Shown: piece by piece, positions 1,916 through 12,747 of the stretch
How positions within the stretch are numbered: the stretch's first letter is position 1
Layout of the letters: every line of letters starts with the position of its first letter
From: Candidatus Levybacteria bacterium CG2_30_37_29
GTDB lineage: Bacteria > Patescibacteriota > Microgenomatia > Levybacterales > GWA1-39-11
Direction: 5' to 3'
Length of the DNA stretch: 64,000 bases
Assembly: GCA_001873215.1 (NCBI GenBank)
Contig: MNYS01000003.1
Location: 49,455 to 113,454 of the forward strand
The notes under the pieces: generated by a model
The model's input: only the letters and a program-made list of their open reading frames with translations
What the model was told of the DNA's origin: nothing
Databases searched by the model: none
Made by a program: the position numbers and the translations under genes

Positions 1916-3109
1916 CTACTCATACCTCAGCGCTTCTATTGGGTTTAGTTTTGAAGCTCTTAGCGCCGGCGCCATACCAAAGACTACCCCGATTAAAAGC
2001 GAAAATGAAAATGCAAGAAAAGCAGACCAGGGCGTAACTGATGAAACAAAAAATTTTGACACAAGCATAGACCCTCCGATTCCAAGAGCAATACCTATAA
2101 GTCCTCCCGAGAGTGAAAGAATTATAGCTTCGAGTAAAAACTGTTTTAGAATATCAATTCGACGAGCGCCTAAAGCTTTTCTAAGACCTATTTCGCGCGT
2201 TCTTTCGGTTACCGACACAAGCATAATGTTTGCAACGCCGATTCCTCCGACAAGAAGTGAAATTGCTGCAATTCCACCAAGCGCAAGAGAGAGAATATTT
2301 GTAATGTTATTAACAGTTTCAAGGCTTGATTCTGCTGTTTGCAAGGTAAAATCGTCTTCTGTCAGGCGTCTTAGAAGAACTTTTTTTGCCTGATCTTTAA
2401 CAAAAGGAACAAGACGGGCTTCGTTTGCCGAAATATAAATTGCGTTTACCTGATTTATTCCAAATTGCCTTCTTGCTGCAGCAATCGGAATAACCGCCGT
2501 ATTGTCCTGGTCAAATCCAAACACCGAGCCCCTTTTTTTCATTACTCCGATTACGGTATAGATATTGTTTCCTATAAAGAAATGTTTTCCAATGGGGTTT
2601 TGGTCACTAAAAAGATTGTTGACAACTGTTGCTCCGACAATAGCAACTTTTGCTCCGGATTGTTCTTGGCTTGATGAGAAAAAAATTCCTTTTTCAATTA
2701 CTGCGTTTTGCACAGTTTTTGTGTAATTTGATGTTGTTCCAAGAACAGACATTCCTTTATCCGTCTTATTTTTATATTTTGAAGTTGAGCTTTGTGAAAT
2801 TACAGGCGCGACACTTGCAGCACTTTTAAGCTTTATTTGAAGACTTGTTGCATCGGAGAATAATAATTTATTGACAACAACACCACCCGGTGTTCTTGCT
2901 CCCCCAACTCTTCCGGGAATAACAAAAATAAGGTTAGATCCAAAAGACGCGATTTGATCGGTGATGTACCGTTGGAGTCCCGACCCAAGGGACACAAGCA
3001 TAATAATTGCAAATACACCGATAATAATTCCAAGAGTTGTCAAAAAACTTCTTAGCTTATTTGAGATAAGAGCTTTAAAAGCAAGTTTTATTAATTCGCG
3101 CGATTCCAT
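1916..3109 (-). CDS. ABC transporter permease of the FtsX/MacB family
   Basis: N-terminal TM helix, a large extracytoplasmic domain, and three C-terminal TM helices with the FtsX-type pattern TEREIGLRKALGA. Adjacent to the ATPase gene. Confidence 0.8.
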   Translation of the reverse strand: MESRELIKLAFKALISNKLRSFLTTLGIIIGVFAIIMLVSLGSGLQRYITDQIASFGSNLIFVIPGRVGGARTPGGVVVNKLLFSDATSLQIKLKSAASVAPVISQSSTSKYKNKTDKGMSVLGTTSNYTKTVQNAVIEKGIFFSSSQEQSGAKVAIVGATVVNNLFSDQNPIGKHFFIGNNIYTVIGVMKKRGSVFGFDQDNTAVIPIAAARRQFGINQVNAIYISANEARLVPFVKDQAKKVLLRRLTEDDFTLQTAESSLETVNNITNILSLALGGIAAISLLVGGIGVANIMLVSVTERTREIGLRKALGARRIDILKQFLLEAIILSLSGGLIGIALGIGGSMLVSKFFVSSVTPWSAFLAFSFSLLIGVVFGMAPALRASKLNPIEALRYE

Positions 3110-3787
3110 TTATTTTACAATCCTTCCGTCAACAAGCCGTATTATTTTTTTTGCTTGTTGTGCAATATCTGCTTCATGAGTAATCAATACTATTGTTTTC
3201 CCTTTTTTGTTTAGATTTTTTAATACTTCCATTACATCGTGTCCTGATTTTACGTCTAAATTTCCCGTCGGTTCATCAGCAAGAATTAGTGCTGGATCAT
3301 TCATAAGAGCACGAGCAATTGCTACGCGTTGCTGCTGTCCTCCGGAAAGCTTGTTGGGTCTGCTGTGCATTTTTTCCTCCATTCCAATGCTTGTAAGAAT
3401 TTCTTTTGCGCGGATATCTCTTTCTTTTTGGGGAATGCCGGCGTATATTGCAGGCAATACGACATTTTCAATAGTTGTAGAGCGGGGTAAAAGATTGAAA
3501 GATTGGAAAACAAATCCGATTGTTTTATTTCTAAGACGGGATAAATCATCCTCGCTAAATTTTGTTATCGGGCTTCCATTGAGAATATATGTTCCGGAAG
3601 TTGGAGTATCCAAAAGCCCCAAAATATTCATAAGAGTTGATTTTCCGGATCCTGACCTTCCTGTAATTGCGATAAAATCGCCCTCGTTAATTGTTAGAGA
3701 AATTCCTGTTAAAACACTGGTTATAACATCTCCAGTTATGTAATCTTTTGTGATATTTTCAAGCTTTATTATCGTGCTTTTACCCAT
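3110..3787 (-). CDS. ABC transporter ATP-binding protein (MacB/LolD-like)
   Basis: Walker [13 protein letters not shown] signature [15 protein letters not shown], Walker [12 protein letters not shown]. Confidence 0.9.
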
Positions 3788-3804
3788 TTGATTATTTGCA
3801 AGGA

Positions 3805-4863
3805 TTATTTTTTAGCAGTAACAAGGGTAGGATTCGTAACTATTGTATCCCCTTGGCTTAATCCATCCAGTACTTCAGCGGAAGTATCGTTTTGAAGACC
3901 AAGTTTTAATGTTTTTTTCTCGTATTTATTTCCAACTTTTACATAAATTTTATCTGTTTCAATAAGGCTTGCAAGAGAAACGGAAATTACACCCGTTTTT
4001 TTCTCGGTTATAATTTGTGCATTTCCATTCATTCCGACTCTATATTGAGAAGAGTCGCTTGGCGAGATTTTTGCCTTCACGTCATATGCGCTTCCTCCAC
4101 TTGACGTTGTATGAGTCACAAAATCTATGCTGTCAACAACAAGATGTATGGTTTTGTCAGGATAACTACCCAAAACAATATCTACTTGTTGTCCTTCTTT
4201 TACTTTGCTGATGTCCGCTTCGTCAACTTCCATTTTGAAAGTAAGAGAAGTCGGATCAACTACCGTAAAAGTAGTTGTGGCGGTTATATTAACTCCTGCA
4301 GTTTTTACGTCTGCGCGAGTTACAATTCCGGCAATAGGAGATGATAAAACAGAATTTTGCCGTACAATATCTTGAAGCTCAACAGAATTAATTGCGGTAT
4401 CAAGATCGTATTGATTATTCTGTAAAAGCCGTTTCATTCGGTCGTTCAAAGCATCTTGTGGTTTGTTCGCCTGTTGATCTAGCGTGTATTGGTCAAAAGT
4501 GTTTCTTTGTTTGCTGTATGTAATAAGGGAAGCTTTTAAATTTTTTTCAACCGTTCTTTGATCAAGTGTGGCAATTGTCTGATATTGAGTAACCGTATCT
4601 CCTTTGTTGACGTTAAGATATGTAAGAAGTCCACCGGCAAGAAAATTCAAATCAACACTTTTTTCAGCAGCTATTGTTCCCGTAATGGAAATGGTTTGTA
4701 TAAAATCTTGTTTTTTTACAACTTCTGTCGGAATTGGTTTTGCGGGTTTTGGCCAAAAGAAAAAAAGAGCAATCGATACAATTAAAACCAGTGGAATAAT
4801 AATCCATTTGTGTTTTAAGACAAACGCCGGAGCTTCATTTTTAATATTATTTATTTTTCCCAT
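3805..4863 (-). CDS. HlyD/MacA-family periplasmic adaptor (membrane fusion protein)
   Basis: N-terminal TM anchor, coiled-coil middle and beta-barrel-like C-terminus. It completes the adaptor-ATPase-permease operon arrangement. Confidence 0.7.
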   Translation of the reverse strand: MGKINNIKNEAPAFVLKHKWIIIPLVLIVSIALFFFWPKPAKPIPTEVVKKQDFIQTISITGTIAAEKSVDLNFLAGGLLTYLNVNKGDTVTQYQTIATLDQRTVEKNLKASLITYSKQRNTFDQYTLDQQANKPQDALNDRMKRLLQNNQYDLDTAINSVELQDIVRQNSVLSSPIAGIVTRADVKTAGVNITATTTFTVVDPTSLTFKMEVDEADISKVKEGQQVDIVLGSYPDKTIHLVVDSIDFVTHTTSSGGSAYDVKAKISPSDSSQYRVGMNGNAQIITEKKTGVISVSLASLIETDKIYVKVGNKYEKKTLKLGLQNDTSAEVLDGLSQGDTIVTNPTLVTAKK

Positions 4864-5014
4864 AATTAAAAAAGCCGATAAAGGCTTGCTTCTTATGATA
4901 TAAGATAAAGCGCGTTAATTCAAGGATAATTTTTTTATCAAGCTGTTATTATAGGTTAATTTACATATTGTATTTACGTAAATTCAGTGGTATTATCGCG
5001 CTAAGCCCCCATTT

Positions 5015-8000
5015 TTGTGGGAATTGTTTTTATTTATATGTATGTATAAATTTAGACGGAAGGTTAGAAAATTTATAACTTTCGTAGCATTTCTTGCAAT
5101 ACTGGGTCAATCCTTCAGCCCCTACCTATATATATTGCCCAAATCGGCTTATGCTCAAGAAGCAACGGATTCAGCAAGCTTACCGCAGGAAGTGACCCCG
5201 ACCCCGATTGAATCGGAGCAAGCAGATACAGCGACACCAACTCCTCTGCCAGCTGGCGTATCAACAGAAACCGTAACTCCAGCTCCAGTTGTAATTACAA
5301 TAGTTTCTCCGGAACCAACACCACCTCAAGCTCCTTCGAAATGGACTTTTGAAAAAGTAGAACTCAATAAAGAATATATTGCTCCTCAAAATAGCGGGGT
5401 AAAATTAACATTTACAAAACTCCCAACTCCTGCAGGCAATATAAAAATTGAAGAAATAAAACTTACTAAAGATCAAATTCAACAAACAGGATCCTTGTCA
5501 GATAAAGCATACGATATAACGTCAGATATGGTAGATGGTTCTTTTACTTATAATCTTTCTCTTCCCATTCCTGATTCATCAAAAGGAAAAGCAATTGAGG
5601 TAAAATTTGCGGAAGAACTTTCAAAAATAGGAACAGCGGAAAAAGTTGACAACGCCCTAACGAAAACAGACACATCAGTCTCCGTAACAAGCCTCGACCA
5701 CTTTACGATTTTTGTAGTTATCGGCACTATCACCAACCCCGGAGAGGATACTTATGTTGGAGAGCCTTTTGATGAAACTTTGTCACAAGTAATTATCAAT
5801 GAATTTGTTTATAACCCATCAACCGGCAATGAATGGATTGAATTATTTAATAAAACCGGTGAAGATATTAATCTGGAAAATTGGCAATTAGTTGATGATA
5901 ACGATCTTTCAAGTGATTTGTCCCTGACTGGCACACTACCAGCTAATGGTATTTTAGTTTTCGAAAAATCCGGAGGTGACGGTTGGCTAAATAATACCGG
6001 TTTAGAATCCATTACTTTAAAAGACAACAATGCACAAACCAAAGACGTTGTTTCTTACAAAGACAACTTTTTCGTTAATGGTCAAAATATTGGTAATGTC
6101 GCAGAAGATCAAAGTGTTTGCCGAACTGAAGATGCGGGTGATACATGGGAGGTCTGTTCGAGTCCTACTAAAGGATGGTTTAATAATGCCGAGACTTTTG
6201 ACTGTGTAAATCCGCCTTCGGGAGCACCTACTTTAGCTTCCATTGCCAACTGTCTGGAAAATCAGGGGTTAAGCACGAATATTGGAATGATTGATAACCC
6301 TTCGGCCACACCGGAAACCGATGGCGCTTTATATTTTGAAAAGGACGAGGGGAAAATTGTTTTTGAAAAAATTTTGAATTTAAGCGACCAAGATACGGTA
6401 AATATCTTACAGAGTCTAGGCACAGCGATGGAGATGTCCTATGGGCATATTAAGTTTGATTCCACGACTGCCGCTGCCATGGCTGCCACGGGTGCCAAGA
6501 TTTATATGTACGAGCTTAACTATGAGACAACACCAGAAATTGTTATTAAAGATGATACAGGCGCTATAGTAGGAACTACTAATGATTCCTCGGCCGACGA
6601 CGATATAGATACAGATGGTATTAATTATGATCTGGACACAGGGGGGTTGTCTTTTACCGCTTTACATTTTACCCAGTTTGATGTGCCGGCGGCTCCAAGT
6701 GCTCCTGTTCGACATGAAGTGTCAAGTCCGACCAATGATACCACACCGACGTTATCGTGGGACGATGTCTCGGCAACGCCGGAAGTAACGTCTTATGATC
6801 TTGAAGTATATGATTCTGAAGGAAATAATATTTATGATGGTTTTATTACGACAATTTCCTCAAGTTTTACACCAGAAGATCCATTACCCGATGATGATTA
6901 TACTTGGTACGTAATGGCAAACAATTCCATTGGTACTTCAGACTGGTCGGACGAGGGAAGTTTTACAATAGAGACTATTGCACCAACCGTTCAGTCTATA
7001 CAAACTATGGACAGTGACGGAGACGGCCATCTCGATGGGATTCAACTTACCTTCGATGAAGAGATTAATGACGATATGCTGGATATGGGTAATCCGGACG
7101 GATGGGATGTTGCCGATCCTGCCGGTGAGGAAAGTATTGGCACCGGCGAGATAGAAAACGACAATGTTTTAGTTTTAAGTTTTGGTGAAGGACCGACACC
7201 GGATACGGCCAATGTACCTAGCGTAACTTACACTCCAAGCGGCGGTCCGACCAGTACCCACGATTTGGCCGGTAATGAACTGGGGTCATATAGCGGAGTT
7301 CCGGAGGATAAAGCCTTACCGGTTTTAATAACGGCCGTAACTAAAGACACCGATACCAGTGGTCAAATCGACGCCATTGAGTTGACTTTTTCTGAAGAGA
7401 TAGATGATGATTGGCTTATTCTTGACTCCGCGGACGGTTGGGACGTAAGTGGATACGACGGTGTATCGATTGGAACAGGAACCATAGGATCTGACAACAT
7501 TCTCCTTCTGACTTTCGACGAAAGCGGAAGCCTAGATACGGGCGTAACTCCACTCGTCTCTTATACAGAAGGCGGGGGAGATGGGAGTACTCACGATTCG
7601 GCTGGAAACGAACTTGCCGCTGTAGTTGACTTTACCTCAATTGACGGGGCGGCACCGCGTGTGCCCGAGGCTGATCCGGGTGGCAGTGACTATTCTGGTG
7701 ATCAGTCGGTATCGCTTTCCAGCAGCGACGAAAATGGCCCGGCACCAGACATTTATTATACTATCGACGGAAGCGAGCCCAACAACGAAGACGGCACTCT
7801 TTATACGGATCCGATTCTGATTGATAAAGACACCACTCTTAAAGCTATCGCCTATGATAGCGCTGGCAACGCTAGTGGTGTATTAACGGAAGAGTATGGT
7901 ATTGCTCCGGTTATTTCCGGAGAAACAACCAGTTCCGTCACGACAACAGGAATAACCATTACTTGGACGACTGATGACCCCTCTACTTCAAGAGTGATTT

Positions 8001-8599
8001 ATGGCACTGCACCGATTTCTGATGCTACTGTTGCCACTTTTCCAGATGGATCAAATTATGGCTATGTTAATTCTACCGTTGAAGACTCAACTTTGGTTAC
8101 CGCTCACTCGGTTGGTTTGACGGGTTTGACCGCTGGAAGCACTTATTATTACCGAACTATATCCCACGGTTCGCCTGAAGCGGTTTCTTCAGAGAAAACA
8201 TTTTCTACGACATCAGCATCTACTACTAGTAGTGGTGGAGGAAGTTTAGGCTCCGGTGGAGGAGCAGGTGATGGTAGATCTGACGGTAAATCGGACGGAA
8301 GATCTGATGGACGTTCCGACGGCCTAGGTCAATCCTCTGCAGTTTTGGCTTCATCAACGTCAACTGGTGGAGGAACAACAGGAGAAGTGTTAGGAGCAGG
8401 TACAGAAGAACCAACATCAGGGACAACAATTTATCCAACTCCGACTCCGGAAAAAGAAATATTGGGTGCCGTTCAGTCCAAAGGTAAAGAAACCAAGACC
8501 GGTAATTTTATTTCTGAAAAATGGTGGTTAATTCCTATTTTTCTGGTATCAATAATAATTAGCATAGTTTTATTTAAAAGGCGCAAGAAGAGCGAATAA
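5015..8599 (+). CDS. Large cell-surface protein with a signal peptide, a lamin-tail domain, tandem internal repeat domains, a chitobiase/hexosaminidase-C-like domain, Fn3-like domains, a Gly/Ser/Asp-rich linker and a C-terminal TM anchor
   Basis: Signal-like N-terminus; the ATG at 5042 (MYKFRRKVRKFITFVAFLAILG) is a plausible true start. LTD motif IINEFVYNPSTGNEWIELFN...NWQLVD. Two homologous repeats (DSDGDGHLDGIQLTFDEEINDD... and DTSGQIDAIELTFSEEIDDD...). DIYYTIDGSEPN...TLKAIAYDSAGNAS. GRSDGKSDGRSDGRSDG repeats. C-terminal WWLIPIFLVSIIISIVLFKRRKK. Confidence 0.7.
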   Translation: MWELFLFICMYKFRRKVRKFITFVAFLAILGQSFSPYLYILPKSAYAQEATDSASLPQEVTPTPIESEQADTATPTPLPAGVSTETVTPAPVVITIVSPEPTPPQAPSKWTFEKVELNKEYIAPQNSGVKLTFTKLPTPAGNIKIEEIKLTKDQIQQTGSLSDKAYDITSDMVDGSFTYNLSLPIPDSSKGKAIEVKFAEELSKIGTAEKVDNALTKTDTSVSVTSLDHFTIFVVIGTITNPGEDTYVGEPFDETLSQVIINEFVYNPSTGNEWIELFNKTGEDINLENWQLVDDNDLSSDLSLTGTLPANGILVFEKSGGDGWLNNTGLESITLKDNNAQTKDVVSYKDNFFVNGQNIGNVAEDQSVCRTEDAGDTWEVCSSPTKGWFNNAETFDCVNPPSGAPTLASIANCLENQGLSTNIGMIDNPSATPETDGALYFEKDEGKIVFEKILNLSDQDTVNILQSLGTAMEMSYGHIKFDSTTAAAMAATGAKIYMYELNYETTPEIVIKDDTGAIVGTTNDSSADDDIDTDGINYDLDTGGLSFTALHFTQFDVPAAPSAPVRHEVSSPTNDTTPTLSWDDVSATPEVTSYDLEVYDSEGNNIYDGFITTISSSFTPEDPLPDDDYTWYVMANNSIGTSDWSDEGSFTIETIAPTVQSIQTMDSDGDGHLDGIQLTFDEEINDDMLDMGNPDGWDVADPAGEESIGTGEIENDNVLVLSFGEGPTPDTANVPSVTYTPSGGPTSTHDLAGNELGSYSGVPEDKALPVLITAVTKDTDTSGQIDAIELTFSEEIDDDWLILDSADGWDVSGYDGVSIGTGTIGSDNILLLTFDESGSLDTGVTPLVSYTEGGGDGSTHDSAGNELAAVVDFTSIDGAAPRVPEADPGGSDYSGDQSVSLSSSDENGPAPDIYYTIDGSEPNNEDGTLYTDPILIDKDTTLKAIAYDSAGNASGVLTEEYGIAPVISGETTSSVTTTGITITWTTDDPSTSRVIYGTAPISDATVATFPDGSNYGYVNSTVEDSTLVTAHSVGLTGLTAGSTYYYRTISHGSPEAVSSEKTFSTTSASTTSSGGGSLGSGGGAGDGRSDGKSDGRSDGRSDGLGQSSAVLASSTSTGGGTTGEVLGAGTEEPTSGTTIYPTPTPEKEILGAVQSKGKETKTGNFISEKWWLIPIFLVSIIISIVLFKRRKKSE

Positions 8600-8785
8600 T
8601 TCCGCATAAATAGTTAGATCCATTAAGCCATCTTTACAATATTTCATATTAGTGCTACATTAGAGAAATGCTAATGGTGGGATTAGTTAAGCTTCTTTCA
8701 TTCTTTCTTTTAATCTTTATTTCCTCAACAAGTCATAAATTAAATTTTTCATTTTCTAATTTCTTTATGAAAGGAGGTGAAAAAT

Positions 8786-9349
8786 ATGAATATTAAAAAA
8801 ATTTTAGTAGGGAGTGCGGCAAGCGCAATAATGCTTGGAGCTATGGTAATTCCAGCATTTGCCGTCGGTAACGGTGCACAAGTTTATCGTTTTGCTAACG
8901 AACCATTTGTTTGGGACGAGACACACGTTCTTGGTAGTTGGTTTCCAGGTGCATCGGAAAAATTCGGAGAAAGTGTTAATGTTCACTACGAAGCACTGAA
9001 CGCAGAAACTGTTAGATTTATGAAAAACGGCGACGTAGAATGGACTTTAACGCAACACGGCACAGCGACCATAACTGCTGTTGATAATGGAGCTTTGTTA
9101 TACGAAGGGCCATTTCAGGTTGAAGAAATTGTTCGCGATAACGGCGGGGACGCAAACTGCTCAACCAGTGACGGACATGCTTGGCTTGGTAAATGTTCGC
9201 AGTGGTGGAATTATGTGGATTTTGCTCAATACAACTGGAAGATAACCGGTAATTCTGTGGATACCTTTAATATAACGGTTAAAGGAGCAGGAAACTGGTG
9301 CTATGGCGGTATCCATGAAAATGGTGCATATGGTCCAGGTTGTAAATAA
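8786..9349 (+). CDS. Secreted hypothetical protein with a signal peptide and several Cys
   Basis: AGGAGGTG Shine-Dalgarno at 8772-8779, 6 nt before the ATG at 8786. Signal peptide ILVGSAASAIMLGAMVIPAFAVG. The upstream in-frame GTG at 8777 lies inside the RBS. Confidence 0.5.
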   Translation: MNIKKILVGSAASAIMLGAMVIPAFAVGNGAQVYRFANEPFVWDETHVLGSWFPGASEKFGESVNVHYEALNAETVRFMKNGDVEWTLTQHGTATITAVDNGALLYEGPFQVEEIVRDNGGDANCSTSDGHAWLGKCSQWWNYVDFAQYNWKITGNSVDTFNITVKGAGNWCYGGIHENGAYGPGCK

Positions 9350-9454
9350 ATCTTTTTTAAATAGTTTAAATTAAGGTAATTTATTTAAACTAATTTTAGA
9401 GCATTTAAGATACTTGGAGTAAAATAAGTAGAGTAATCTATTTATTTTAAACAG

Positions 9455-9487
9455 CTCACCGAGAAATCGGTGGGTTGTTTTTTTTTG
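9455..9487 (+). terminator. Rho-independent terminator
   Basis: Hairpin CACCGAGAAATCGGTG (6-bp stem, GAAA loop) followed by GGTTG and a T9 run. Confidence 0.6.
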
Positions 9488-9601
9488 CAAAATCTTTTCA
9501 TTTCAGAGCCACTAATAGCACTAAGGATTAATAAGGAATAGGGTGGTCAATTTATCTTTCTGTCTCTGTCTTTAAATCTTTAGACAATTTTATCTACACA
9601 A

Positions 9602-9626
9602 TCCCGTTGTCCAGTAAACGGGACAA
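9602..9626 (+). repeat. 25-bp hairpin-forming repeat, copy 1 (TCCCGTTGTCCAGTAAACGGGACAA)
   Basis: Identical 25-mer also at 10081-10105. It contains the internal inverted repeat GTTGTCC/GGACAAC and the alternative CCCGTT/AACGGG. Confidence 0.7.
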
Positions 9627-9635
9627 ACAAATAAA

Positions 9636-10046
9636 TTATCGTGCAACGTTTTTTCTTTTAAACCCCGTATATTCCTTTGTCTTGAATATTTTTGTGGAAC
9701 CGCCGACTAAGCGATGACTTTTAGTTTTATACACTTTCCCAACTTTTTTGTTTCTCGCCGAAATTAAGTGAAAGCATTTTTCATAATCTTCCAAGTTTTT
9801 TGCGACCTGCGCAATCGTAGTTCTTCCTACTTTCAAAAACGATTGAATTTCTTCCGTTCGGAGATCTTGCAGTAGATATTCGGCGATTTGTATTCGTCTA
9901 CCTATTTTCATTCGCTCATCAAAGGTTAGTATGCCATTCATTATTTGTTCAACATCATTGCCGTCATTTGCAGCGAGAAAAGCATCCCTGACTTTATTTA
10001 GTGCTTCATAAACGTCTTCTTTTTGTAGGAATTTATAACGTCTCAT
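9636..10046 (-). CDS. YerC/YecD (TrpR-like) family DNA-binding protein, paralog 1
   Basis: Homologous to the second copy at 28251-28667 (DERMKIGRRIQIAE versus DERIKIGRRIKIAE; C-terminal YTGFKRKNV versus YTGFKRKDV). The likely start is the internal Met MRRYKF at 10046, by alignment to the paralog. The longer ORF runs to 10070. Confidence 0.6.
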   Translation of the reverse strand: MRRYKFLQKEDVYEALNKVRDAFLAANDGNDVEQIMNGILTFDERMKIGRRIQIAEYLLQDLRTEEIQSFLKVGRTTIAQVAKNLEDYEKCFHLISARNKKVGKVYKTKSHRLVGGSTKIFKTKEYTGFKRKNVAR

Positions 10047-10080
10047 TTGTTTTAATGTAATTAATAACATTATATATCAT

Positions 10081-10105
10081 TCCCGTTGTCCAGTAAACGG
10101 GACAA
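10081..10105 (+). repeat. 25-bp hairpin-forming repeat, copy 2
   Basis: Identical to 9602-9626. It lies about 35 nt upstream of the start codon of the minus-strand YerC-like gene. Confidence 0.7.
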
Positions 10106-10490
10106 CATCGATTATTAGAGTATTATAAAAAATCCCGAGGGTTGTTTTTTTGGGGAAAAAGTAATATAATAATATTATAGGCTTTTTTGTATTGCGCTTT
10201 GCATGCAATATTAAAAGAAGCTTTTTTTTTTGCATATTCTATTGAGTAGCAAAATATTGTTCTTTGACAAATTGCGGAAATATTTTGTTTTTCCTAATTA
10301 CGGGGAACACAGTAAGATTAGTTCATTTAGAACTGGTTTTGCTGTGTTTCCTTTGGGGAGGGAAGACAGTCTCTTGTGGTTAATCGGATAAATCCAAAAC
10401 CACAAATACAATTCAATATAAGCAGGAGGTAACAGCTCGAAAAACTATCCTTAACGACCGGAATTCAACCAAGAAAGGTAGTACAGTACA

Positions 10491-11150
10491 GTGTTCAAGA
10501 TGCCCATTCTCATGGGCGCAATCGCTCTGATTGTTGCATTCGGCGTCATCGCCACCATACTGGCTGGTGCGGCAGGCGAGGCGACCACCTCTTCAGATCT
10601 CCCCTACAAGGCGTACGCCGTTGGTCTCGCTAGCGACGAACTGAAGGTCACACCTGCGTCTGCGACGCCTACTGCAACGAGTACCGTCGGAGGCGGGACC
10701 GCGCCGATAAAACCGAACTTCTACCTGCCCGAGCCGCGGACTGGCCCGATTACCGACCTAGAGCAGCGGCTACTGAATGGCATCAACATGGAGCGTGCCA
10801 ACGCCGGCCTCGCGCCCTACGCGCTCGATGCCGGGCTCAGCTGCATCGCCCGTGTGCGCGTCCAGCAGCTGGTCGACCAGAACTATTTCGGCCACACGGA
10901 TCCATTCGGCTATTCTATGTACGCCGAGCTGCTCGCCTACTTCGGCTATGCCAGCTACGTCTGGGCGGGTGAAAACCTGGTTTTAAACAACTACGAAGTG
11001 ACCGAATCGCCCGAGCGCGCGGTGGCCGCTCTGATGCAGAGTCCCACCCACTGGGTGAATATCCTTGATGGGGAATTCGTCCGCATTGGCGTAGGCGAAC
11101 TCACAACGGCGGATGGTCGCCACTTCTACGCCATGATCTTCCTGAGTTGA
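10491..11150 (+). CDS. CAP/SCP (PR-1-like, YkwD-type) domain secreted protein encoded in a high-GC island
   Basis: N-terminal TM or signal MPILMGAIALIVAFGVIATILAG. CAP-domain-like motifs LLNGINMERANAGLAPYALD, YFGHTD, GENL, QSPTHWVNIL. Third codon positions are mostly G/C. The segment is about 60% GC against about 35% for the window. Confidence 0.6.
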   Translation: MFKMPILMGAIALIVAFGVIATILAGAAGEATTSSDLPYKAYAVGLASDELKVTPASATPTATSTVGGGTAPIKPNFYLPEPRTGPITDLEQRLLNGINMERANAGLAPYALDAGLSCIARVRVQQLVDQNYFGHTDPFGYSMYAELLAYFGYASYVWAGENLVLNNYEVTESPERAVAALMQSPTHWVNILDGEFVRIGVGELTTADGRHFYAMIFLS

Positions 11151-11427
11151 CCTGCCTTCCGCGCGGCCCTGCTGGGCAATACCAAGTTTCCTTCGGGAAG
11201 AGTAACTGCGCAAGACATGCAAGCGTTGCACGCTTAATCCTGAGGGATAAATCAATTTCCGCAATCGTGCGGGGTCCAGTGCCTGATCTTCAGACACAAA
11301 ACCCCGCACACCATTCTTAATTAAAACATTCACCTCTAATTTAAAAAGCAACAACTTTACAAAAAACAAATTTTTAACATCCTTTAGTAAATAATAAAAT
11401 AACGCTTTTTCCTATTTATTAAGCCTA

Positions 11428-11456
11428 TTGTCAAAATATATTTCTGGTGTTATAAT
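11428..11456 (+). promoter_or_regulatory. Sigma70-like promoter (TTGTCA, 17 nt, TATAAT)
   Basis: TTGTCA at 11428-11433, 17-nt spacer, TATAAT at 11451-11456. It lies upstream of nusA. Confidence 0.5.
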
Positions 11457-11534
11457 CTCATAATATTCTGCCCCTTATACTCTTATGGAAGATGACGATG
11501 AATTTTGTTTCTAAAAAAAATCTTTTGATTTACC

Positions 11535-11563
11535 TTGACTCGTGCAGTGCCATCTGTTAAAAT
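11535..11563 (+). promoter_or_regulatory. Sigma70-like promoter (TTGACT, 17 nt, TAAAAT)
   Basis: TTGACT at 11535-11540, 17-nt spacer, TAAAAT at 11558-11563, about 65 nt upstream of the nusA start. Confidence 0.45.
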
Positions 11564-11628
11564 AATGGAAAGTTAGGTTTGATTGTGGTGGGAAAATAAC
11601 CCGCCTTTTTTTTACCTACATCAAGTTT

Positions 11629-12747
11629 ATGGCTGTTGTACAAAGAAGCGAATTTACATTAGCGCTCAACCAAATCGCCTCTGAAAGAGGAGTTGACCCG
11701 GAAGTGGTTTTGGATACTATAAAAGGAGCAATACTTGCGGCTTTTAAAAAAGATAATCCTGAAGTTGAATTAGACGAAAGCTATACTGCAGATTTAAATT
11801 CTGTTACCGGAGAAACAAGAATCTTAAAAGATAAAAAAGATATAACTCCTCCCGGTTTTGGAAGAATTGCGGCCCAAACAGCAAAGCAAGTTCTTTTGCA
11901 AAAAATCCGCGAGCGTGAGAAAGACGCGATAATTGAAGAGTATACAAAACGCGTTAATACCGTTGTCAACGGGCACGTTCTTCGGTTTGCAGGCCCAAAT
12001 ATAATTGTTGACATTGGAAAATCCGAAGCCATTATTCCGCCACAGCAAAAAATTCCAAACGAACAGTATTTTCTAAATAAAAAAATGCCTGTTTATATAG
12101 TTGAGATAAATGAGGAAAAAGGACGAGAAATTATTGTTTCAAGATCTCACCCGGGTCTTATCGAAGGGCTTTTAAAAAGAGAAGTTCCGGAAGTTTCCGC
12201 AGGAAATGTTACTGTTAAAAAAATTGTCAGAGAACCCGGAAACCGAGCTAAAATTGCCGTCTATTCCGAAAGCCCCGGTATTGATCCTGTTGGAAGCTGT
12301 GTCGGACAAAAAGGAGTGCGCATTCAAGCAGTTATTGATTCACTTGACGGTCTTGAGAAAATTGATATTATCCAATGGAATGCAGACCCCGTAAAATTTA
12401 TTACAAATAGTCTTTCTCCCGCAAAAAATTTAAACGTAAAAATAAATGAAGAGGAAAAGCTTGCAAGGGTTGAGGCTCCTCAAGAAGAATTGCCGCTTAT
12501 TATTGGAAGAGACGGTCAAAATGTACGTCTTGCATCAAAATTGACAGGATACAATATTGAAGTCGAAGGAGTAGAAATGCCGCATGAATCAGAAGAAGAC
12601 TTGTCGGCGGATGTTTCAGGCTTAGACCAAGCAACTCAGGTAGAACAGCCCGTTGTAGAAGAAAAACCCAAAAAAAAGGCTGCCGCAAAAAAAACAGCTT
12701 CTAAAAAAGCAAAAACGCCTAAAAAAACCGAGAAAGCAAAAGAATAG
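11629..12747 (+). CDS. nusA: Transcription termination/antitermination factor NusA with a Lys/Ala-rich basic C-terminal tail
   Basis: NusA N-terminal domain, S1 and tandem KH domains (GPNIIVDIGK..., GQKGVRIQAV..., LIIGRDGQNVRLASKLTGYNIEV). Tail KKKAAAKKTASKKAKTPKKTEKAKE. Confidence 0.9.
   Translation: MAVVQRSEFTLALNQIASERGVDPEVVLDTIKGAILAAFKKDNPEVELDESYTADLNSVTGETRILKDKKDITPPGFGRIAAQTAKQVLLQKIREREKDAIIEEYTKRVNTVVNGHVLRFAGPNIIVDIGKSEAIIPPQQKIPNEQYFLNKKMPVYIVEINEEKGREIIVSRSHPGLIEGLLKREVPEVSAGNVTVKKIVREPGNRAKIAVYSESPGIDPVGSCVGQKGVRIQAVIDSLDGLEKIDIIQWNADPVKFITNSLSPAKNLNVKINEEEKLARVEAPQEELPLIIGRDGQNVRLASKLTGYNIEVEGVEMPHESEEDLSADVSGLDQATQVEQPVVEEKPKKKAAAKKTASKKAKTPKKTEKAKE

Follow-up and report, generated by a model that had tools for sequence, protein, structure and literature searches.

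The DNA considered here is a stretch of 64,000 nucleotides (nt), hereafter the window, from contig MNYS01000003.1 (positions 49,455 to 113,454, forward strand) of Candidatus Levybacteria bacterium CG2_30_37_29 (GCA_001873215.1). At 10491–11312 of this window lies an island with a high guanine-plus-cytosine (GC) content, which carries a gene for a CAP-domain protein between a TrpR-like gene and nusA. The CAP gene is located on the plus strand at 10491–11150 and is defined by the list of open reading frames (ORFs), a Pfam CAP match, an identical protein in public metagenome-assembled genomes (MAGs) and contigs, and a GC content at third codon positions (GC3) of 0.72. Read from the GTG codon at 10491, the ORF encodes 219 aa, and alternative starts are found at ATG 10500 (216 aa) and ATG 10512 (212 aa). 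The 216-aa version corresponds to the NCBI annotation OIP57940.1, which was deposited as a hypothetical protein.

The encoded protein belongs to the Pfam CAP family PF00188, which it matches over residues 95–213 with E = 2e-12 and a score of 48.4 bits against a gathering cut-off of 21.1. Three segments can be distinguished along the plus strand. The first is an N-terminal hydrophobic helix (residues 4–27, 10500–10571), which was delimited from an AlphaFold model and a DNA alignment to the nearest Chloroflexota gene and is predicted to be either a signal-anchor or a long signal peptide. It is followed by a disordered linker of about 47 aa rich in Thr, Ser, Ala, and Pro (10572–10712), recognized by a predicted local distance difference test score (pLDDT) below 50 at residues 29–55 and by the protein alignment. 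The CAP domain itself (residues 75–219), together with 14 nt beyond the stop codon, occupies 10713–11164 and was placed by blastn, invariant columns, and fold match. In the AlphaFold model, which was built on 48 homologues, the pLDDT was 82 overall and 94–98 in the domain, which adopts an alpha-beta-alpha arrangement, while residues 28 to about 78 were disordered. The best Foldseek matches for the domain were bacterial and eukaryotic CAP structures (4d53 BB0689, 4ifa, 4h0a SAV1118, GAPR-1, and PR-1 P14a), with a probability of 1.0 for 4d53, 4ifa, GAPR-1, and PR-1 P14a and a target TM-score of 0.77 for 4d53. A single-sequence search of the PDB with the CAP protein gave no match, and a profile search found 4ifa at 2e-8.

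The window copy preserves all 35 invariant columns of the 48-sequence family alignment as well as His135, Glu146, Glu161, and His187, which are invariant or nearly so in this alignment and form a candidate CAP-cavity tetrad. The best NCBIfam match was TIGR02909 (spore_YkwD), with E = 2.5e-26 over nearly the whole profile; its score of 92.1 bits is well under the curated cut-off of 171 bits, and membership of the YkwD family was therefore rejected. The intact ORF, with its hydrophobic helix, disordered linker, and CAP fold, and the purifying selection described below make it most likely that the product is held in the membrane or secreted and exposes its CAP domain at the cell surface. An earlier reading of this DNA, made from its letters alone (the original prediction), had proposed an N-terminal hydrophobic anchor and a CAP (PR-1/YkwD-like) domain, of which the first agrees with the predicted helix at residues 4–27 and the second was confirmed by the PF00188 match and the Foldseek results. 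CAP domains elsewhere bind sterols or lipids and divalent cations; to our knowledge, the roles of bacterial members such as YkwD and BB0689 are poorly defined.

The island differs sharply from its surroundings in base composition. Every 200-nt window within 10500–11299 had a GC content of 0.55–0.65, compared with 0.27–0.33 on the left (10000–10399) and 0.275–0.305 on the right (11300–11599), and a 40-nt profile placed the climb at about 10500 and the drop at about 11312–11340. These values agree with the abrupt switch and the roughly 0.9-kb high-GC island in the original prediction. The AT-rich surroundings that it described were also found, with the full window measuring 37.5% GC rather than about 35%, and 10491–11312 about 60%. 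The CAP ORF (10491–11150, plus strand), with a GC content of 0.60 and a GC3 of 0.72, is a unique outlier among the window ORFs, since GC3 ranged from 0.19 to 0.36 in all 56 others of at least 80 aa; no second GC-rich gene was thus found among them, and the description of the third positions as almost all G/C was overstated. In tetranucleotide distance from the rest of the window, the 870-nt segment 10441–11310 ranked first of 218 windows (z = 6.3), and its profile was nearer to a Chloroflexota contig than to the host. With 22 long host ORFs as the reference set, the pseudo codon adaptation index (pseudo-CAI) of the CAP ORF was 0.376, compared with 0.672 ± 0.021 for the host (z = −13.8). Both comparisons, which had been suggested as checks together with the original prediction, set the island apart from the host.

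The second-strongest tetranucleotide outlier (6400–8400, z about 4, GC up to 0.52) lies inside ORF 5015–8599, which encodes a 1194-aa LTD/Fn3/CHB_HEX_C surface protein. This bump comes mainly from the first and second codon positions (GC1 and GC2) of a Gly/Asp/Thr/Ser-rich protein, and GC3 is only mildly raised, to 0.41–0.46; it was therefore rejected as a counterpart of the CAP island. Either the amino-acid composition of the protein or an earlier acquisition that is by now largely ameliorated could account for it.

An abrupt composition step is typical of chimeras, and several of the contigs have low coverage (e.g., cov 4.9 in L002), as would suit a chimeric assembly or binning artefact in which a Chloroflexota fragment was misjoined into a Levybacteria contig. 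The original prediction had named this alternative, which we regard as exceedingly improbable. In at least 20 contigs, from many samples and at least three assemblers, the CAP gene always lies between the TrpR-like gene and nusA, with both junctions the same base for base. Ten of these loci (L001–L004 and L010–L015), which derive from ENA, JGI, and Logan samples and from MEGAHIT, SPAdes, and Logan assemblies, were 99.89–100% identical to the window across both junctions. Some of their flanks differed by up to 14 single-nucleotide polymorphisms (SNPs), indicating that they are not copies of one assembly, and one population with 10 flank SNPs carries the same junctions. Zero variants were observed within the island across the ten loci, and the protein cluster of the CAP protein contained one Thr-to-Ser variant. 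The protein is also present in four independently deposited NCBI Candidatus Levybacteria MAGs (CG2_30_37_29 and three related ones), on contigs of up to 177.6 kb, where its accessions are consecutive with those of NusA and the infB product and the flank proteins are named NusA, IF-2, PNPase, and RpoB. The CAP gene is fixed in the sampled population. Further, no Chloroflexota sequence in the searched databases was closer than 85.7%, and GC-to-AT substitutions in the gene outnumber the reverse by 36:4, a host-type bias that is not expected from misjoined genuine Chloroflexota reads.

Upon searching 5.8 billion proteins, we recovered 77 clusters, that is, the Levybacteria cluster and 76 homologue clusters, with no other cluster from the candidate phyla radiation (CPR) among these matches. 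Full-length homologues are about 300 aa, and a shorter minority comes mostly from short contigs. The minority of homologues that bear a taxon name are labelled Tepidiformaceae, Dehalococcoidia, "Chloroflexi bacterium" or CFX7, and the protein search that had been proposed for finding the donor lineage thus led to Chloroflexota. Five contigs with close relatives have GC contents of 66–70%. On the longer ones (L006–L009), a sortase gene, a gene for an HTH_25 protein, and the CAP gene occur in a conserved order with a convergent gene downstream, indicating that the gene is native in Chloroflexota. In a neighbor-joining (NJ) tree of 58 CAP domains, which was based on distances and had no bootstrap support values, the window protein fell deep within this family. 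Its sister group was P0005+(P0002,P0006), and no terminal branch in the subclade was longer than its own; its amino-acid identity within the Chloroflexota clade was 79–85%. Blastn identities to the window were 85.7% for L005, 78.8% for L006, and 73.8% for L007–L009, covering only 10713–11164. Acquisition from a high-GC donor, for which the original prediction had argued, is strongly supported by this nesting, the 85.7% DNA identity, and the composition. Co-occurrence of donor and recipient found no support, as both P0002 and P0006, the two nearest relatives, originate from JGI sample 3300036766, which is not among the samples with Levybacteria contigs.

That the gene is native to Levybacteria, with an odd composition produced by selection or local mutation bias and no transfer at all, is hardly credible in the light of these results. 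The compositional heterogeneity nearby, namely the 1194-aa ORF with its tetranucleotide z of about 4 at 6400–8400, would favor such an origin, but the GC rise there is mainly in GC1 and GC2, whereas that of the CAP gene is at synonymous positions (GC3 0.72). The protein moreover nests in a Chloroflexota clade at 79–85% amino-acid identity, with no other CPR cluster in the 77 matches, and 22 sister species lack the gene at the syntenic site. A reverse transfer, in which Chloroflexota received the gene from Levybacteria, is very unlikely, and so is a common source of both copies in another high-GC lineage or a mobile element. Such readings draw on the facts that the exact donor lies outside the sample and that only a minority of the relatives carry a taxon name. 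Nevertheless, the family is represented by at least 58 full-domain clusters of considerable diversity and shows conserved synteny in GC-matching Chloroflexota contigs, while the Levybacteria copy is a single tip whose composition fits Chloroflexota and not the host; there is also no phage or plasmid match, no tRNA, and no significant flanking repeat.

The CAP island belongs to a lineage-specific block of 6.8 kb (4864–11586), which extends from hlyD to the nusA leader and was defined by comparison with sister species. The block contains the genes for the 1194-aa LTD/Fn3 surface protein, a 190-aa secreted protein, and the TrpR-like protein in addition to the CAP island. The left neighbor of the island, the TrpR-like gene (9636–10070, minus strand), has a Pfam Trp_repressor match at 7.8e-10 and a host-like GC3 of 0.30. 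The right neighbor, identified with Pfam, is nusA (11629–12747, plus strand), a core gene of the host; infB, rpsO, and pnp come after it, in a synteny that is kept in 22 sister loci. These 22 sister Levybacteria and Microgenomates loci were obtained from a NusA scan of species-representative genomes, in which the Levybacteria NusA proteins were 71–81% identical. Within 6 kb of nusA, none of the 22 loci had a CAP homologue, a TrpR-like gene, or a counterpart of the 190-aa or 1194-aa gene.

In seven sister species, the macB-ABC-hlyD operon (1916–4863 in the window, minus strand) lies just upstream of nusA. The gap between hlyD (minus strand) and nusA (plus strand) is about 200–330 nt in five species (L016, L021, L022, L023, and L025), and two others have other small cargo genes at this site (L017, 5054–5806; L030, 4244–4992). 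Since the site is empty in five species, holds other cargo in two, and has four lineage-specific genes in the window, it is, by this comparison of sequences, a variable hotspot across Levybacteria species. Of the four lineage-specific genes, the CAP gene alone has a donor-like composition, and the CAP fragment looks like the latest addition to the hotspot. No marks of a mobile element were detected: the window has no tRNA, flanking repeats were not above chance, phage or plasmid DNA gave no match, and no neighbor is integrase-like, the adjoining genes encoding the LTD/Fn3 surface protein, a protein without family match, and the TrpR-like protein. A mobile genomic island (integrative element, prophage, or transposon) was accordingly rejected, as was a phage or plasmid vector.

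The time spent in the recipient has left a trace in the substitutions. When these were polarized with L006 and L007 as outgroups, the window branch had 44 changes, of which 36 were GC-to-AT and 4 were AT-to-GC; the branch of the sister L005 had 16 changes, 6 of them GC-to-AT and 7 of them AT-to-GC. Where three relatives share the same base, 23 of the 25 window-specific changes were GC-to-AT and none was the reverse (binomial P = 4e-5). This bias is independent evidence that the gene has replicated inside an AT-rich genome. The GC3 of the CAP domain is 0.77 in the window, compared with 0.92, 0.85, and 0.83 in relatives and about 0.28 in the host, and the gene has thus moved roughly one fifth of the way to the host GC3 equilibrium. 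The transfer is recent relative to speciation, yet partly ameliorated. The original prediction had called the composition unameliorated and the acquisition very recent, which overstates the case given the 36:4 bias, the GC3 of 0.77 against about 0.9, the 14% DNA divergence from the nearest known relative, the remodelled N-terminus, and the fixation in the population.

We found 22 synonymous and 22 nonsynonymous changes on the window branch, over 109 and 329 sites, respectively, which correspond to an omega (nonsynonymous-to-synonymous rate ratio) of about 0.33 (P = 3e-4 versus neutrality), while omega on the sister branch was about 0.11. The value of about 0.33 indicates selection that is relaxed but purifying. 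It also bears on the alternative that the transfer is real but the gene is decaying, non-functional cargo, either unexpressed or a pseudogene in the making. Consistent with decay, omega exceeds that of the sister branch, substitutions are nearly three times as many, the cytoplasmic N-terminus has been lost and the linker shortened, no clear promoter or well-placed ribosome-binding site (RBS) was detected, and window-specific replacements have occurred beside conserved motifs (PTHRAN to PTHWVN and LSRIA to LSCIA). On the other hand, the 219-codon ORF is intact although AT-biased mutation readily makes stop codons, the nonsynonymous/synonymous ratio is below neutral (P = 3e-4), none of the 35 family-invariant residues has been lost, the gene is fixed and showed no variant across 10 loci, and CPR genomes, as a general statement, are streamlined and tend to shed useless DNA (PMC12455944). 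On balance, we consider decay unlikely.

Taken together, it is highly probable that the island records a cross-phylum transfer from Chloroflexota into an AT-rich, ultra-small groundwater Levybacteria lineage, and that the gene, now partly ameliorated, remains intact and encodes a putative surface CAP protein. Several observations weigh against this reading. The exact donor lies outside the sample, and even the nearest relative reaches no more than 85.7% DNA identity. Since the N-terminal 74 codons and the 3ʹ tail had no blastn match in the sampled relatives, the island may be of mosaic origin. Homology of the N-terminal part to the donor family is weak, with a DNA p of about 0.01 for one relative and a non-significant result for protein. 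The species-representative scan did not return the species of the window itself (best NusA match, 81%), which makes even the nearest comparators fairly distant. Directly upstream of the CAP ORF, the scan yielded no promoter, and the best Shine–Dalgarno-like motif, AGGAGG at 10424, has no start codon following it. Finally, the omega on the window branch, about three times that of the sister and donor clade, would also suit a gene heading for loss.

Under the transfer from Chloroflexota, the history of the island can be sketched as follows. An ancestor of this Candidatus Levybacteria (CPR/Patescibacteria) species would have taken up a fragment of about 0.8–0.9 kb from a high-GC member of Chloroflexota related to Tepidiformia, Dehalococcoidia, and CFX7. 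The fragment would have contained the greater part of a gene whose product is an extracellular CAP (SCP/PR-1/YkwD-like) protein with a membrane anchor, and would have been inserted into the variable hlyD–nusA site. The first 25–30 or so donor codons, which specify the cytoplasmic N-terminus, would have been lost or have decayed, so that translation would now start just ahead of the hydrophobic helix, and the long Pro/Ala linker would have been replaced by the present linker of about 47 aa. Replication under the AT-biased mutation of the host would then have brought about partial amelioration, while relaxed purifying selection would have kept the gene intact as it became fixed in the sampled population. 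The product would most likely be anchored in, or secreted across, the cytoplasmic membrane and would expose a CAP domain that binds a ligand at the surface. The route of uptake would probably have been natural competence with illegitimate recombination, and uptake of free DNA is a reasonable assumption in view of the natural competence predicted for CPR bacteria (PMC12455944, introduction). We also considered whether the transfer records episymbiosis or a shared biofilm with a Tepidiformia/Dehalococcoidia-like Chloroflexota host, the gene being kept since a host-type surface CAP protein helps attachment or tolerance. This idea is speculative and quite unlikely, as no result besides the transfer itself speaks for it and the nearest relatives stem from another sample; if true, it would amount to a testable host prediction for a CPR lineage.

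The linker block has a GC3 of 0.60–0.68 and no DNA homology to donor-family genes in blastn. Upstream of it, the transmembrane (TM)-coding DNA at 10512–10568 aligned in register with the TM-coding part of L005, and 4 of 400 shuffles were as good (p about 0.01); the corresponding alignments against L006 or L007 were not significant. Among the proteins, the first 73 residues likewise showed no significant similarity to donor N-termini (z of 1.7 or less), and homology at this level was rejected.

The left junction zone (10420–10500), delimited from the sequence and the 40-nt GC profile, has a GC content of 0.40–0.45. It contains in-frame stops at 10452 and 10479 and, at 10424–10429, the AGGAGG without a start codon behind it. 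A relic donor RBS or 5ʹ end at 10415–10500 was rejected, given that only the TM-coding stretch aligns and the AGGAGG at 10424 is out of register. A Shine–Dalgarno-like GAAAGG lies 12–13 nt ahead of GTG 10491, and the CAP gene would presumably be expressed from host DNA upstream. The original prediction had placed AT-rich, promoter-like sequences in both flanks; the promoter scan supported it for the right flank, with AT-rich sites at 11428–11456 and 11535–11563, and not for the DNA directly upstream of the CAP ORF. Flanking direct repeats, in the form of collinear short repeats at 10346–10414 and 11186–11316, were rejected because 19 of 500 shuffles matched their best local alignment, as did 27 of the 442 segments taken from elsewhere in the window.

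At the other end, the island closes with a GC-rich (about 0.5) 3ʹ untranslated tail of 148 nt (11165–11312, plus strand), which was delimited by composition and has a fold z-score of −3.39. The tail showed no homology to the DNA downstream of the CAP gene in sampled relatives. It ends in a G+C-rich stem-loop at 11267–11309 (plus strand; arms 11267–11286 and 11290–11309), which corresponds to the hairpin that the original prediction placed near 11270–11312. The stem has 9 bp of G+C (GUGCGGGGU/ACCCCGCAC) with no U-tract after it, and it is for this reason not a canonical intrinsic terminator; a terminator scan of the plus strand did not report it. Homology of the tail and hairpin to donor terminators was rejected, as the donors carry another hairpin (GGAAGGCCGG...CCGGCCTTCC) and no alignment extended beyond 14 nt.

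Further features were noted around the island. The AT-rich intergenic region upstream of the CAP ORF (10071–10490) is unusually long, about 420 nt, and contains small hairpins (ACACAG/CTGTGT at about 10306–10355 and TTGTGG/CCACAA at about 10374–10405) without an Rfam match. When 9300–11700 was scanned with Rfam for riboswitches or leader RNAs, only a sub-threshold match to Ref1C, an Enterococcus small RNA, was obtained at 9368–9486 (plus strand), after the 190-aa ORF; its 29.7 bits against a gathering score of 90 (E = 0.097) make it most likely a chance match. On the minus strand, an antisense ORF of 128 aa (10983–11369) overlaps the CAP 3ʹ end and was called as a gene in several public assemblies. 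It has no Pfam match and is probably spurious and no part of the CAP system, because long antisense ORFs would be expected in GC-rich DNA.

The nusA leader has a hairpin of its own at 11587–11605, GGTGGG and CCCACC separated by 4–8 nt and followed by a T-run, with the promoter-like site 11535–11563 nearby. The GGTGGG/CCCACC hairpin recurs within about 15–75 nt upstream of nusA in at least 14 sister Levybacteria species (L016, L019–L023, L027–L031, L034, L035, and L037), in a divergent intergenic region and with the stem sequence itself conserved; Rfam gave no match. It may be a leader terminator or attenuator, possibly one that serves NusA autoregulation. Among the sister loci, nine species-representative MAG records titled "uncultured Gammaproteobacteria bacterium" (L017, L018, L022–L024, L026, L028, L029, and L035) carry the Levybacteria-type nusA-infB-rpsO-pnp order with NusA 76–79% identical to that of the window, and their titles look taxonomically wrong. 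In L012 (7118–8236, JGI 3300008001), a locus with only 5 mismatches from the window, nusA was called as two ORFs of 162 and 143 aa; as the gene is essential, either a nonsense variant or a sequencing error is indicated.

The case described here is a well-controlled, single-gene, cross-phylum transfer in which the recipient, the donor phylum, the empty site, the amelioration, and the selection were all read from sequence alone. It illustrates that a compositional island in a MAG need not mean a binning error, and the rate of amelioration in CPR genomes could be calibrated, on a small scale, with the help of such a case.

Among known proteins, the closest family is that of the membrane-anchored Chloroflexota CAP proteins of about 300 aa (KAA0234913.1/MCL4231393.1, RIL03786.1 of CFX7, and Tepidiformaceae and Dehalococcoidia MAG proteins). 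Across the CAP domain, the four genes compared share 78–84% protein and 74–86% DNA identity. Like the window copy, these proteins combine a hydrophobic helix, a disordered linker, and a C-terminal CAP domain with the same invariant residues. They differ in having an extra cytoplasmic N-terminus of about 25 aa, which the window copy lacks, and a Pro/Ala linker of about 130 aa instead of about 47 aa. The window copy has a GC3 of 0.77, compared with 0.83–0.92 in the Chloroflexota genes, and is without the sortase/HTH_25 neighborhood. More distant counterparts are BB0689 of Borrelia burgdorferi (4d53), the SCP-domain protein of Bacillus anthracis (4ifa), and SAV1118 of Staphylococcus aureus (4h0a), which have the same alpha-beta-alpha CAP sandwich as the fold predicted for the window protein. 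They are likewise extracellular or surface proteins, but only 17–24% identical to it, and they are anchored or exported through a lipoprotein or signal peptide, whereas the window protein has a hydrophobic N-terminal helix. YkwD (TIGR02909) is the best NCBIfam match but falls below the cut-off, and the Levybacteria host is no spore former.

At the level of the transfer itself, the appropriate comparison is a survey of groundwater Patescibacteria (PMC12455944, mSystems 2025), which reported hundreds of transfer events covering up to 13% of genome length from diverse donor phyla. Our literature search found no paper on this gene or on any Levybacteria–Chloroflexota transfer. The surveyed transfers resemble the present one in that genes moved individually across phyla, that the recipient is a streamlined aquifer CPR genome, and that mobile-element hallmarks are lacking. 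They differ in their donors, since the donor table of the survey lists Omnitrophota, Bacteroidota, and others and the word "Chloroflexota" appears nowhere in its text, whereas the donor here is from Chloroflexota. Unlike in the survey, a polarized amelioration signal and an empty site are documented for the window event. The CAP gene is therefore one further instance of the well-documented transfer into groundwater Patescibacteria, to which it adds a Chloroflexota donor and unusually clean evidence.

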